From sequence record MN850635.1: DNA of 64,000 nucleotides; one strand, written 5' to 3'. The notes beneath the pieces are model-generated. The model was not told where the DNA came from and did not search any database. It was given only the letters and a program-made list of their open reading frames with translations. The stretch is from Escherichia phage bumzen. Shown piece after piece: positions 5,130 through 7,471 of this stretch; within the stretch, counting starts at the first letter, position 1; every line of letters begins with the position of its first letter. A program made the translations under genes and the position numbers.

Positions 5130-5687
5130 ATGAGATATTTGAAGTATGCTTCATGGATTTTCCTAGCTTTACTAGAGCCATTTGCAGCAACCCTAGCAGT
5201 CATCTTAGCACCTTTCGTAGTTCCATTCTATAGTGAGAAGAAAGGACACCTACCTTTTGGATTCAGATGGATGGAGACCTATGACAACCCGATTGATGGT
5301 GATAAAGGCCACGTTGAGAGATGGGCTAAGATTAGAAAGATTGGTAAGCTAGGTGTTTATATGCAAAGAGTCGGATGGCTCTGGAGAAACAAAGCTTATA
5401 ACTTCTCTTACCATGTATTAGGAAGAGATGTAAGAGATGTTACTAAGTGGAAAGGTAATATCAACGTAAGTTCTGACCCCGAAGATAATCAGACAGGTTA
5501 TCTCCTAATGTGGAACAGTAATGCTTGGGGATTATTCGCTTTTATCCCATCAATTAAAATCTTTGGTAAACAATTTTACTGGAGAATTTATATTGGATGG
5601 AAACTAAAAAGTGTTGTCCCAGAAGAAAGAGCATTCTCAAGGGAAAGAGTTATGTTGGCATTCTTTATTCATCCACTGAGAAAGTAA
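5130..5687 (+). CDS. hypothetical membrane protein
   Basis: 185 aa ORF after AAAGAGG; hydrophobic N-terminus WIFLALLEPFAATLAVILAPFVVPF; embedded in the tRNA array. Confidence 0.55.
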   Translation: MRYLKYASWIFLALLEPFAATLAVILAPFVVPFYSEKKGHLPFGFRWMETYDNPIDGDKGHVERWAKIRKIGKLGVYMQRVGWLWRNKAYNFSYHVLGRDVRDVTKWKGNINVSSDPEDNQTGYLLMWNSNAWGLFAFIPSIKIFGKQFYWRIYIGWKLKSVVPEERAFSRERVMLAFFIHPLRK

Positions 5688-5695
5688 AGATTTAA

Positions 5696-5771
5696 AGGGG
5701 ATTAGTTTACAAGGTTAAAACCTCGGTCTTTGAAATCGAAGAAGTTGGTTCAATTCCAACATCCCCCGCCA
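5696..5771 (+). tRNA. tRNA-Gln (anticodon TTG)
   Basis: Acceptor AGGGGAT/ATCCCCC (1-72 unpaired); D-stem GTTT/AAAC; anticodon loop CTTTGAA; G73; CCA encoded. Confidence 0.65.
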
Positions 5772-5773
5772 AT

Positions 5774-5852
5774 GCTCCATTACTCCAATTGGCAGAGAGG
5801 CCAGACTTAAAATCTGTGTTATGTATCGGTTCGAATCCGATATGGAGTACCA
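5774..5852 (+). tRNA. tRNA-Leu (anticodon TAA), short variable arm
   Basis: Acceptor GCTCCAT/ATGGAGT; D-loop AATTGGCAGA; anticodon stem CAGA/TCTG, loop CTTAAAA; A73; CCA encoded. Confidence 0.55.
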
Positions 5853-5857
5853 AATTT

Positions 5858-5933
5858 AGCGGTATAGCATAACTGGCAATGCAGCAGCCTCTGAAGCTGT
5901 CCTATTAAGGTTCAAATCCTTATGCCGCTGCCA
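5858..5933 (+). tRNA. tRNA-Gln (anticodon CTG)
   Basis: Acceptor AGCGGTA/TGCCGCT; anticodon stem CAGC/GCTG, loop CTCTGAA; G73; CCA encoded. Confidence 0.65.
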
Positions 5934-5964
5934 CTTCTAAGGATTCTTGCGAGAGTCCTTAAAT

Positions 5965-6040
5965 GTGGCCTTATCATAAACGGTAATGACCCATGCTGTG
6001 AACATGGTCTATACGGGTTCAAATCCCGTAGGTCACCCCA
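5965..6040 (+). tRNA. tRNA-His (anticodon GTG)
   Basis: Acceptor GTGGCCT/AGGTCAC; anticodon stem CCATG/CATGG, loop CTGTGAA; C73; CCA encoded; no encoded G-1. Confidence 0.7.
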
Positions 6041-6045
6041 ATTTA

Positions 6046-6122
6046 TAGTCCAAGTAGCTTATATGGTTAAAGCGCGTGTCTGAAAAACATGAGAAGAGGG
6101 TTCAAATCCCACTGGACTACCA
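6046..6122 (+). tRNA. tRNA-Phe (anticodon GAA)
   Basis: Acceptor TAGTCCA/TGGACTA; anticodon stem CGTGT/ACATG, loop CTGAAAA; T-loop TTCAAAT. Confidence 0.65.
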
Positions 6123-6138
6123 ATTTCAAAGGTGCTTA

Positions 6139-6873
6139 ATGAAAGAGATGACAGAACAAGGTAAGGAGATTTTTAATCTCTTAAAAACTGGTAAAGGGTT
6201 CTCTAACCCGCTTATTACTGGTGCAGCAGTTCTCGGTGGAACCGTAGCTGCTTCTACATCACTTGTAAGCTCTATTAGTTCTGTAACAGACCCTACAATG
6301 AAGGAGAAACTTGTTGCTGCTGGACTTACAACAGTCCTTCTAAACAGCTTTACAACAAGCCTTACAAGCACTACAGCAACTACTAAAACTCTGACAGACT
6401 ACGGTCAAAAATCTATTGATGAGTTTTCATCACGTATGCAGGTAGCAAAGGGGTATTCCAATGTTATGGGTGCAGCAGGAGAACAAGTTGGTTGTACACC
6501 ATTCAGTGGTATCATGGGTGTTGCTACAGAGTATGGTCAAAAAGCTATTGACATGATGAACAGTACACTAGATAGTGTTAATGGTGTGTTAAGTGACTTA
6601 CAAGATGCTATTGATAAGGGTCTTGATACTGTTTCTGATTTAGCTAACCAAGCTGTCAGTAAGATTAATGAAGGTATTTCAAAGATTACAGCTTATGCAG
6701 ATGAAGTTGTGCAGATGATTGAAGAAGAAGCTGCCATTATTGCAGAGTACCTTAAAACGAATATCAATGGGTTCTTAGCAGGTATCTTACCAGACTGGTT
6801 TGATGATGCTTGTAAAACTGGTGTAATTGACACTATTGCAACACCAGAAATGAAGAACGCATTACAGAAATAA
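6139..6873 (+). CDS. hypothetical Ser/Thr/Ala-rich protein
   Basis: ORF track 6076-6873 trimmed to ATG 6139 because the upstream part overlaps tRNA-Phe; 244 aa with a helical C-terminal half. Confidence 0.5.
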   Translation: MKEMTEQGKEIFNLLKTGKGFSNPLITGAAVLGGTVAASTSLVSSISSVTDPTMKEKLVAAGLTTVLLNSFTTSLTSTTATTKTLTDYGQKSIDEFSSRMQVAKGYSNVMGAAGEQVGCTPFSGIMGVATEYGQKAIDMMNSTLDSVNGVLSDLQDAIDKGLDTVSDLANQAVSKINEGISKITAYADEVVQMIEEEAAIIAEYLKTNINGFLAGILPDWFDDACKTGVIDTIATPEMKNALQK

Positions 6874-6874
6874 T

Positions 6875-6967
6875 GGAAGATTAACCCTAAAAGGTAAGGG
6901 AGCAGTTTGCTAAACTGCCAGTAGCTGAGAAATCGGTGTACCAGTTCAAGTCTGGTATCTTCCTCCA
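6875..6967 (+). tRNA. tRNA-Ser (anticodon GCT), long variable arm
   Basis: Acceptor GGAAGAT/ATCTTCC; anticodon stem GCAGT/ACTGC, loop TTGCTAA; long variable arm; T-arm ACCAG-TTCAAGT-CTGGT; CCA encoded. Confidence 0.7.
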
Positions 6968-6972
6968 ATTTT

Positions 6973-7048
6973 GAATCCGTGACAGAAATGGATATGTGCC
7001 TGTCTGCAAAACAGGTTTATAAGGGTTCAAGTCCCTTCGGATTCTCCA
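6973..7048 (+). tRNA. tRNA-Cys (anticodon GCA)
   Basis: Acceptor GAATCCG/CGGATTC; anticodon stem CCTGT/ACAGG, loop CTGCAAA; U73; CCA encoded. Confidence 0.7.
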
Positions 7049-7085
7049 AGTTATTTTACTCTCTCTCAATTAAAATAATAATAAT

Positions 7086-7145
7086 GCCCTGCTATAAGTA
7101 TTCTTCCTTTCGCTACCGAAGAGTATTTTTAGACAGGGCTTTTTT
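7086..7145 (+). terminator. terminator-like hairpin with large loop at the end of the tRNA array
   Basis: GCCCTG (7086-7091) pairs with CAGGGC (7134-7139), followed by TTTTTT. Confidence 0.4.
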
Positions 7146-7210
7146 ACAGAGTTATACTTTATAGGAAGACTTATACAGTATGTCTCTGACGTACATTGTG
7201 GTTTCTCCTT

Positions 7211-7234
7211 GACGGTCTCCGTGCCGTCTTTTTT
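7211..7234 (+). terminator. rho-independent terminator
   Basis: GACGG-tctccgtg-CCGTC followed by TTTTTT. Confidence 0.6.
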
Positions 7235-7270
7235 AAGGGGAAACAAGATTAATTATTTGGAGAAAACATA

Positions 7271-7471
7271 ATGAGCGAGAACGTTTATAAAGAACTTTAT
7301 GAAGCTAACAAGAAGTTAGAGTTTATGCAGAATACTATCATGGCAATTGCAGATAGATTATCTGTAGCAACAGGTATTGATATTAAAGAAGCATCTATGG
7401 ATGCACTTCTTGATGCTGTTGATGCAAAGTTCGAAGTTAAGAAAGAAGAGACTGCTACAGACTCTGAATAA
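7271..7471 (+). CDS. hypothetical small protein upstream of terminase
   Basis: 66 aa ORF with RBS-like GGAGAAAA; helical and acidic. Confidence 0.45.
   Translation: MSENVYKELYEANKKLEFMQNTIMAIADRLSVATGIDIKEASMDALLDAVDAKFEVKKEETATDSE

Follow-up and report, generated by a model that had tools for sequence, protein, structure and literature searches.

We have examined two protein-coding genes that lie among the transfer RNA (tRNA) genes of Escherichia phage bumzen, in a 64,000-nt stretch of sequence record MN850635.1 (the window; all positions are counted from its first nucleotide). A preliminary description, made from the sequence alone, had regarded both open reading frames (ORFs) as accessory genes, or morons, of unknown role that are inserted in the tRNA array and co-expressed with it. 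ARAGORN identified 25 tRNA genes between 1776 and 7048, every one of them on the + strand, and the four tRNAs that adjoin the two ORFs were also called by Rfam. The part of the array that concerns us is organised as follows:

5035..5110, + strand: tRNA-Arg(ACG), the upstream neighbour of ORF A (ARAGORN, Rfam)
5130..5687, + strand: ORF A, equivalent to Felix O1 ORF48 (DUF7338 / phrog_2143)
5696..6122, + strand: tRNA-Gln(TTG), tRNA-Leu(TAA), tRNA-Gln(CTG), tRNA-His and tRNA-Phe, between the two ORFs (ARAGORN, Rfam)
6139..6873, + strand: ORF B, equivalent to Felix O1 ORF49 (DUF7217 / phrog_2114)
6875..7048, + strand: tRNA-Ser(GCT) and tRNA-Cys, the final two genes of the array (ARAGORN, Rfam)

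The interval 5000-7100 found matches in 291 phage records, 215 of which covered at least 80% of the interval at identities of 80-99%. Since the best matches were Escherichia phages Barry, Tribble and fjerdesal (98.6%) and Salmonella phage Felix O1 (96.9%), sequence similarity assigns the window to the genus Felixounavirus, subfamily Ounavirinae. Both ORFs are genuine genes, because each gives a full-length Pfam match, shows a low ratio of nonsynonymous to synonymous divergence (dN/dS), recurs in many relatives and is annotated in Felix O1 (ORF48, NP_944875.1, ‘Phage conserved protein’; ORF49, NP_944879.1, ‘hypothetical protein’). In pairwise comparisons with four or five relatives, among them Felix O1, VpaE1, SUSP1 and Michonne, dN/dS was 0.05-0.15 wherever divergence sufficed; by this measure, purifying selection acts on the two genes. 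Hundreds of genomes have copies that are ∼97-99% identical. The genes had been catalogued already, as ORF48 and ORF49 since the Felix O1 genome and now as DUF7338 and DUF7217, and to this extent the finding is largely ordinary. What the analysis adds is a lysis hypothesis for ORF A, the linkage of the DUF7338 family to tRNAs and to endolysins, and the position of a genome end.

ORF A starts with an ATG 19 nt 3′ of tRNA-Arg(ACG), is preceded by a Shine-Dalgarno-like AAGAGG 8 nt 5′ of this codon, encodes 185 aa and has its stop 8 nt before tRNA-Gln(TTG). The product matches DUF7338 (PF24027) with 207.6 bits and an E value of 1.6e-61, residues 1-184 aligning with positions 1-176 of the 180 in the profile (gathering cut-off 27 bits, full-length match required), and also matches phrog_2143, a family of unknown function (2.2e-80). 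Copies that are 95-99% identical occur in more than 180 phage records, and Felix O1 ORF48 has the same slot between tRNA-Arg and tRNA-Gln. The gene had been described beforehand as encoding a 185-aa membrane protein between tRNAs, in agreement with the single strong hydrophobic segment at residues 9-27 (Kyte-Doolittle 19-residue maximum 2.11) and with a helix at residues 2-33 of the AlphaFold model that is kept across the family. In the model, a single membrane helix at the N terminus is joined to an alpha/beta domain; the isoelectric point (pI) of the protein is 9.96, its C-terminal domain being strongly basic. No solved structural relative of the alpha/beta domain was found, and the protein gave no match to PADLOC or NCBIfam families. 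A DUF7338 homologue in YerA41 carries the label ‘structural protein’, to which we gave little weight, as the particle preparation also held polymerases and helicases.

Comparison with related phages showed that ORF A is a clean 579-bp presence/absence cassette, flanked by the two copies of an 8-bp direct repeat:

5111..5118, + strand: ATTTAAAG, left copy of the repeat
5690..5697, + strand: ATTTAAAG, right copy of the repeat, overlapping the first 2 nt of tRNA-Gln

In Michonne (Mooglevirus), tRNA-Arg is followed after 9 nt by tRNA-Gln, and window positions 5117-5689 are missing by alignment. A search of 67 of the 90 kb of the Michonne genome revealed no DUF7338 gene, nor did one of the tRNA/terminase locus, the part considered, of Erwinia phage Roscha1 (Kolesnikvirus); other Moogleviruses match the tRNA part of the region only. 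Michonne gp109, which also has 185 aa, was considered as a relocated ORF A and rejected. Copies of ORF A are present in many T4-like phages at 55-62% identity, in Escherichia phage Av-05 at 80% (IMG/VR locus L042) and in Hafnia phages Zyzzx and SarahDanielle at 88%. Furthermore, synonymous divergence (dS) from SUSP1 was 0.30 for ORF A and 1.03 for ORF B, though the genes are only 450 nt apart, and the low value for ORF A suggests a recent exchange, between genera, of the segment that holds this gene and the terminal repeat described below. Given the clean indel in Michonne, the absence at the Roscha1 locus, the copies in unrelated phages and the low dS, ORF A is best described, as far as genome comparison goes, as a mobile accessory cassette.

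We then considered the genomic context of the DUF7338 family, scanning 80 loci from IMG/VR for tRNAs (L020-L099, to which L018, from Pseudomonas phage phiPsa315, was added). A same-strand tRNA was located at most 1.2 kb from the DUF7338 gene in 23 of the 32 contigs of at least 80 kb, a count in which related phages are not independent samples. Ounavirinae, Hafnia phages, Av-05, several T4-like groups, Otagovirus and environmental contigs have the gene inside a tRNA cluster or a short way 3′ of one, and the tRNAs on its two sides vary: Arg and Gln in Felixounavirus, Asp and Ser in the Hafnia phages, Gly and Gln in Av-05, and, in a group with the ∼170-kb size of T4-like phages, Phe and Met within an array of 19 tRNAs. 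Other lineages have a Met, Gly or Arg tRNA upstream, and in phiPsa315 (Otagovirus) the gene (2986-3546, Pfam 1.2e-45) is placed between tRNA-Val and tRNA-Trp. Since the chance of finding DUF7338 within 1 kb of a tRNA is ∼1% in genomes with one to three tRNAs, this linkage is not accidental. DUF7217, taken as a control family, had a tRNA within 4 kb in none of nine Ackermannviridae loci. The linkage is best explained by co-mobility in endonuclease-rich, preferentially inherited tRNA regions, because homing endonucleases abound in the tRNA regions of phages, as exemplified by the HNH genes of the Felix O1 array (three) and of the window (one, 3397-3795). A precedent is the T4 tRNA region with the homing endonuclease SegB, which is likewise an endonuclease-rich, preferentially inherited mobile tRNA block. 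The recurrence of DUF7338 beside tRNA clusters of unrelated phages illustrates how tRNA regions serve as carriers of accessory genes.

A different association was found in the contigs without a nearby tRNA. There, an endolysin is encoded within one or two genes 3′ of DUF7338, and five unrelated kinds of endolysin occur at this place (the lysis-context loci being L068, L069, L072, L080, L081, L084, L085, L087, L150 and L151):

L069, L080 and L085: Phage_lysozyme, 3′ of DUF7338
L072 and L087: GH108 with PG_binding_3, 3′ of DUF7338
L068: Peptidase_M23, 3′ of DUF7338
L081: Amidase_3, 13 nt 3′ of DUF7338
L084: Amidase_2, 3′ of DUF7338

In a metagenomic contig, the gene order is tail fibre, DUF7338, a 96-aa membrane ORF, GH108 endolysin and Rz-like spanin (the GH108 locus L150). 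The small ORFs that often intervene between DUF7338 and the endolysin encode membrane proteins, two of which match GTA_holin_3TM. The family has two characteristic settings, the tRNA clusters of large virulent myoviruses and, in smaller phages devoid of tRNAs, the head of the lysis cassette beside the endolysin. Linkage to endolysins that replace one another is a classical mark of genes that belong to a lysis cassette. At ORF A itself this linkage is absent, the lysis genes being scattered and no endolysin lying nearby; it is seen in distant members of the family only.

Because distant DUF7338 relatives head lysis cassettes beside endolysins, we infer that ORF A is most likely an inner-membrane lysis-associated protein, either a T4-like (class III) holin or a holin partner or regulator. 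The chances that it has a lysis role of some kind (holin, co-holin or regulator) seem to us evenly balanced. In phages with scattered lysis genes, such a gene would ride in the recombination-prone, homing-endonuclease-rich tRNA region. The unknown role assigned to ORF A in the preliminary description would thereby be narrowed to lysis by distant genomic context, and it stands in the sense that neither Pfam nor PHROG assigns a function. ORF A has the membrane helix (at least one in a small phage protein) by which holins are recognised, and several database records of its relatives are labelled class-III holin. Like T4 holin T, it combines a single N-terminal membrane helix with a globular domain of ∼150 residues, and both genes are unlinked to an endolysin in phages whose lysis genes are scattered; the two proteins differ in that they share no homology and in that T4-like carriers of DUF7338 have T as well. 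The genome paper of Salmonella phage Mushroom calls the DUF7338 homologue a class-III holin. This protein, Felix O1 ORF48 and ORF A are the same gene, with no structural difference, and its annotation as a holin was made from topology. According to the Felix O1 paper (PMC3185647) and the CRISPRi-ART supplement (PMC11879866), Ounavirinae have no identified holin; lysis in this subfamily has been described as a mystery, and ORF A is at present the strongest candidate for a membrane component of it. A knock-out-type check is provided by the transcriptome-wide dCas13d knock-down screen of SUSP1, in which agp134 (88394-88951), whose product is 96% identical to ORF A, obtained a score of 1.24 with three guides (Kolmogorov-Smirnov (KS) p 0.087) and was classed as Semi-Fit, while the ORF B homologue was Not Fit (PMC11879866). 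The large terminase was itself merely Semi-Fit, therefore false negatives occur in this screen (PMC11879866).

Several observations weigh against a lysis role. Polar disturbance of tRNA-Arg maturation may account for the Semi-Fit score of agp134, because the guides against ORF A begin 6 nt after tRNA-Arg and because agp137 was also Semi-Fit. The latter (L008 2354-2527) is an ORF that overlaps tRNA-Lys and tRNA-Ile, and its phenotype may reflect blocked tRNA maturation rather than loss of a protein. The authors of the Michonne genome report a putative class-III holin, yet DUF7338 was not found in the 67 kb of that phage, and therefore ORF A does not serve the whole subfamily as its holin. Carriers of DUF7338 among the T4-like phages possess a holin of their own, T. 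Unrelated morons also favour the tail-fibre/lysis junction as a landing site, so that adjacency to endolysins could be positional. The basic C-terminal domain fits the periplasm less comfortably in our reading. Finally, ORF A shows no homology to any known holin family; in particular, neither its sequence nor its fold resembles T4 holin T, and it falls outside Phage_holin_T.

A stricter proposal is that ORF A is the Felix O1-type holin itself, a class III protein with N-in, C-out topology that would time lysis together with a soluble lysozyme and spanins. The Mushroom annotation, the one-helix architecture, the lack of any other holin identified in the group, the Semi-Fit score of agp134 and the location of DUF7338 at the holin position directly before Amidase_3 (L081) or Amidase_2 (L084) would all agree with it. 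Nevertheless, Mooglevirus and Kolesnikvirus, which lyse normally, lack the gene as judged from 67 kb of Michonne and the Roscha1 locus, holin T co-exists with DUF7338 in T4-like phages, in several cassettes the endolysin is parted from DUF7338 by the gene of another small membrane protein (with the two GTA_holin_3TM matches among them), and homology to known holins is missing, which makes this proposal doubtful in our view. A related idea, which we rate slightly lower still, is that DUF7338 is an unrecognised class-III-like holin or lysis-timer family with a fold of its own that moved into the tRNA operon of large virulent myoviruses whose lysis genes are scattered (Felix O1-type phages, Av-05, several T4-like groups and Otagovirus). 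If this were true, lysis timing would be coupled to the transcription and processing of the tRNA precursor, the long-missing holin of Felix O1-type phages would be supplied, and the double signature of DUF7338, tRNA clusters or endolysins, would be explained. ORF A might instead have a function tied to the phage tRNAs, either countering tRNA-cleaving defences or coupling tRNA supply to the membrane. Linkage with differing tRNA partners in Ounavirinae, Hafnia phages, Avunavirus, Straboviridae groups, Otagovirus and environmental contigs is what such a function would produce; the C-terminal domain is basic, and the CRISPRi-ART authors speculate that auxiliary genes of tRNA regions answer tRNA-targeting defences (PMC11879866). 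Yet most of the distant DUF7338 members have no tRNA within 4 kb and are found beside endolysins instead, ORF A matches no nucleic-acid-binding or enzymatic fold and no PADLOC family, and co-mobility in homing-endonuclease-rich tRNA regions, for which T4 SegB offers the precedent, explains the linkage equally well. We thus regard a tRNA-related function as improbable, and a lysis-associated membrane protein remains the preferred reading of ORF A.

Relatives of this phage have a direct terminal repeat whose equivalent in the window begins inside ORF A:

5352..5962, no strand assigned: stretch equivalent to the direct terminal repeat of relatives, placed in this phage by homology

This stretch comprises the 3′ 336 nt of ORF A followed by tRNA-Gln, tRNA-Leu and tRNA-Gln. 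The UAB_Phi87 record has at its ends an exact 542-bp direct repeat that corresponds to window positions 5355-5896, and in the paper on this phage Bal31 digestion together with run-off sequencing yielded a terminal repeat of 608 bp. The contig of Escherichia coli O157 typing phage 15 starts at window position 5352, and a repeat of 581 bp has been obtained with PhageTerm for Felixounavirus Pr103Blw. The left edge of the repeat is thus supported by two assemblies, and its right edge should be taken as approximate. According to these coordinates, the packaged DNA of these relatives begins at its left end inside ORF A (codon ∼75) and carries the intact ORF A at its right end. The order at the left end of relatives is the 3′ part of ORF A, tRNA-Gln, tRNA-Leu and tRNA-Gln, then tRNA-His, tRNA-Phe, ORF B and terminase. 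By homology, packaged DNA of bumzen would carry a truncated extra copy of the 3′ part of ORF A together with three tRNAs. The array is split by the physical chromosome end in a close relative, and the tRNA ‘array’ is contiguous on the circular or concatemeric map only. A chromosome end within the array matters for the engineering of therapeutic or diagnostic phages and for the interpretation of early transcription.

Turning to ORF B, this gene encodes 244 aa and starts 16 nt after tRNA-Phe (which ends at 6122), in accordance with the distance of less than 20 nt given before, and a Shine-Dalgarno-like AAGGTG closely precedes its start codon. From the stop codon to tRNA-Ser(GCT), which starts at 6875, the gap is 1 nt, and not 2 nt as had been stated. 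A longer version of ORF B with a GTG start (6076) was discarded; it overlaps tRNA-Phe and is unsupported by homologues. The protein has a mass of 25.7 kDa and a pI of 4.5, and the richness in Ser, Thr and Ala that had been ascribed to it is evident in the composition (T 11.1%, A 9.8%, S 8.6%, as well as G 8.6%). Copies 95-99% identical are present in ∼190 records. ORF B matches DUF7217 (PF23854) with 292.2 bits and an E value of 4.4e-87, residues 8-243 aligning with positions 2-238 of the 238 in the profile (gathering cut-off 29 bits, full-length match required), and phrog_2114, of unknown function, with 2.3e-111. The predicted structure is a confident, compact all-helical bundle with neither helix-turn-helix nor beta-barrel. 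Most of the ∼194 cluster representatives of the DUF7217 family are stand-alone proteins with a length of 220-300 aa, and the fusion partners found in longer proteins contain no informative domains. Two cysteines of ORF B, C119 and C225, are invariant across the DUF7217 proteins of Ounavirinae and Ackermannviridae and could form a disulfide or a metal site.

The position of ORF B is conserved. In Felix O1, SUSP1, Michonne and Roscha1 (44% identity in the latter), representing the four genera Felixounavirus, Suspvirus, Mooglevirus and Kolesnikvirus, the gene is immediately followed by a small ORF, the large terminase gene and the portal gene. In Roscha1 the homologue follows the last tRNA, tRNA-Ser(GCT), whereas in Felixounavirus this tRNA lies downstream of ORF B. 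The 93-nt tRNA-Ser(GCT) is 89% identical between the two phages (window 6868-6970 versus Roscha1 L005 4878-4980). So either tRNA-Ser(GCT) or ORF B has switched sides between Felixounavirus and Kolesnikvirus, and the location of ORF B ‘inside’ the array is therefore a local rearrangement. Homologues with 26-29% identity occur throughout Ackermannviridae, beside a lipoprotein gene and a tail-completion gene; no DUF7217 gene was found at the equivalent place in Otagovirus. Because of its constant position in four genera and of the virion-protein homologue discussed next, ORF B is a conserved Ounavirinae gene, and neither a recent insert nor a moron.

Regarding its function, ORF129 of Dickeya phage LIMEstone1, an ‘unknown structural protein’ transcribed from a late promoter, has been confirmed in virions by mass spectrometry, and a structural counterpart has been reported in phage ViI. 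ORF129 and ORF B have the same length, are 27% identical over the full length (E 3e-27) and share the same two invariant cysteines. On account of this Ackermannviridae homologue, we infer that ORF B may be a low-copy, non-essential virion-associated protein of bumzen, to which we give somewhat less than an even chance. The two settings differ, since the Ackermannviridae gene is far from tRNAs, next to a tail-completion gene and under a late promoter, whereas the Ounavirinae gene is at the end of the tRNA array. Some results speak against a place in the virion. The detection of LIMEstone1 ORF129 comprised two peptides with 18% coverage, ORF49 was absent from the Felix O1 shotgun virion proteome, a list that kept proteins with at least 25% coverage (PMC3185647), and its gene belongs to a unit that was scored as maximal at 5 min by reverse transcription PCR (RT-PCR) in Felix O1 (PMC3185647). 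The Felix O1 paper also mentions ‘Gp49’ as a 51-kDa virion band and possible sheath (PMC3185647). This band is unusable as support for ORF B, whose product has 25.7 kDa, and fits gp63 (48.9 kDa), the likely sheath; the ‘Gp49’ label is probably a numbering slip that was propagated into abstracts. The proteome papers on VpaE1 and wV8 contain no usable statement on the ORF A and ORF B proteins.

The same results would fit an early, non-structural intracellular protein that is not present in Felix O1-type particles, a reading that we consider rather unlikely while giving it more weight than any other competitor of the virion reading. To its credit are the location in the tRNA unit, the RT-PCR maximum at 5 min, the absence from the Felix O1 shotgun proteome, the inconsistent mass of the ‘Gp49’ band and the fact that SUSP1 agp133, the homologue of ORF B (84% identical), was Not Fit with a score of -0.12 (PMC11879866). 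On the other side, the RT-PCR timing classes are unreliable, since the capsid gene 58 was also maximal at 5 min, the coverage threshold applied to the shotgun list was 25%, and the homologue has been found in LIMEstone1 virions, with its counterpart reported in ViI. Much less probable, and in our opinion barely tenable, is that ORF B represents the missing small terminase or a packaging-site factor. No small terminase has been identified in Felix O1-type phages, and the inferred genome end lies ∼200 bp from ORF B, which shortly precedes the one terminase gene recognised there; tandem terminators nevertheless separate it from the large terminase, Ackermannviridae keep T4-type terminase subunits elsewhere and yet have DUF7217 beside the tail-completion gene with its product in virions, and the protein has no terminase-family match in Pfam or PHROG, is modelled as a helical bundle without helix-turn-helix or beta-barrel and was Not Fit in SUSP1. 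Association with the virion therefore remains our preferred reading for ORF B.

Other labels for ORF B were examined and rejected. An analogy with the T4 gp2 DNA-end protector, raised by the DUF7217 gene neighbouring gp3 in Ackermannviridae, gave an hhalign probability of 1.1%. The label ‘GTP-binding domain’ derives from phrog_289 (500 positions), a composite of three consecutive Ackermannviridae genes; in Salmonella phage moki (L003 5325-6720), gp037 corresponds to positions 18-146, gp038 to 134-207 and the DUF7217 gene to 259-500, and ORF B matches only the last third of phrog_289. Matches to tape-measure proteins (E 1e-5 to 7e-3) involve coiled-coil segments only and are compositional, as are the coiled-coil matches to ZorA and apolipoprotein, which are far below the family cut-offs. 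A ‘putative membrane protein’ label was also set aside, as the weak hydrophobic window (1.62) is not conserved and is a helix of the bundle in the model.

With respect to expression, the following signals were recognised around the array:

3119..3147, + strand: promoter-like site, predicted by consensus match only
7086..7146, + strand: first intrinsic terminator, a long GC-closed hairpin with a U-run (z-score -5.2 for 7049-7240)
7211..7234, + strand: second intrinsic terminator, GACGGTCTCCGTGCCGTC then T6

The site at 3119-3147 (TTGACA-17-TATACT, 11 of 12 consensus positions) is the best sigma-70-like match upstream of the two ORFs on the + strand, and is the equivalent of P45, a promoter put forward for Felix O1 (PMC3185647). 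Promoter-like matches as a class were not clearly above chance over the scanned 9.5 kb, with 25 found and 19.0 ± 4.8 expected from shuffled sequences. Between 3147 and 7086 we found no credible terminator, except for a weak 5-bp stem within ORF B, and the two terminators that follow tRNA-Cys in tandem, and would end the transcription unit, have equivalents with the same annotation in Citrobacter phage Michonne. In Felix O1, RT-PCR detected ORF48 and ORF49 transcripts, which were scored as maximal at 5 min (PMC3185647). The major capsid gene 58 is maximal at 5 min in the same table (PMC3185647), and therefore we used that table as evidence of transcription only. On these grounds, the mRNAs of both ORFs would be made on the same precursor RNA as the tRNAs and would be freed by RNase P / RNase E type processing of the kind that trims tRNAs. 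The model for such a release of mRNA is the handling of tRNA operons in E. coli and T4. The E. coli operon thrU-tyrU-glyT-thrT-tufB carries a protein gene that is co-transcribed with tRNAs and parted from them by tRNA processing; the phage ORFs differ from it in being wedged tightly between tRNAs, with spacers of 1-19 nt. The co-expression put forward in the preliminary description is thus plausible, given the common strand, the Shine-Dalgarno-like sites, the lack of an internal terminator and the Felix O1 transcripts, and for bumzen co-transcription and processing would follow by analogy.

Taken together, these data bear on the initial view that both ORFs are accessory morons inserted in the tRNA array and co-expressed with it. 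The term accessory can be retained for ORF A, which is lacking in 67 kb of Michonne and at the Roscha1 locus and has copies in unrelated phages, and has to be dropped for the conserved and syntenic ORF B. Clean absence from some close relatives, one hallmark of a moron, applies to ORF A and not to ORF B. In this feature ORF A, as an extra gene, resembles the lambdoid morons bor and lom, from which it differs by having no promoter and terminator of its own; ORF B does not vary across the subfamily. A dedicated promoter plus terminator, and hence the capacity for independent expression, is lacking in both ORFs, so neither is a classical moron. That both genes are non-essential or mildly important in the SUSP1 screen and have no Pfam or PHROG function would suit two morons as well as the presence/absence cassette of ORF A does, but the synteny of ORF B across four Ounavirinae genera, its virion-protein homologues, the lack of dedicated promoters and terminators and the non-random contexts of DUF7338 make this view unlikely. 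The best combined explanation, to which we give an even chance, is that ORF A is a mobile lysis-associated cassette and ORF B a conserved virion-associated gene, both within the tRNA transcription unit.

Two further ORFs of the region deserve mention. Between the terminators and the large terminase there is a conserved, acidic ORF of 66 aa (7271-7471) that matches no Pfam family; its SUSP1 homologue, agp132, was Not Fit (PMC11879866). Within the array, Rfam reported a weak tRNA-like element at 3352-3430 (33.4 bits), a 26th one that ARAGORN missed, and an ORF of 132 aa that has HNH-like, Cys-rich motifs (3397-3795) starts within this element. Because tRNA-Arg(TCT) occupies the corresponding part of the array in relatives, the arrangement suggests that a homing endonuclease was inserted beside or into a tRNA gene near 3352-3795.

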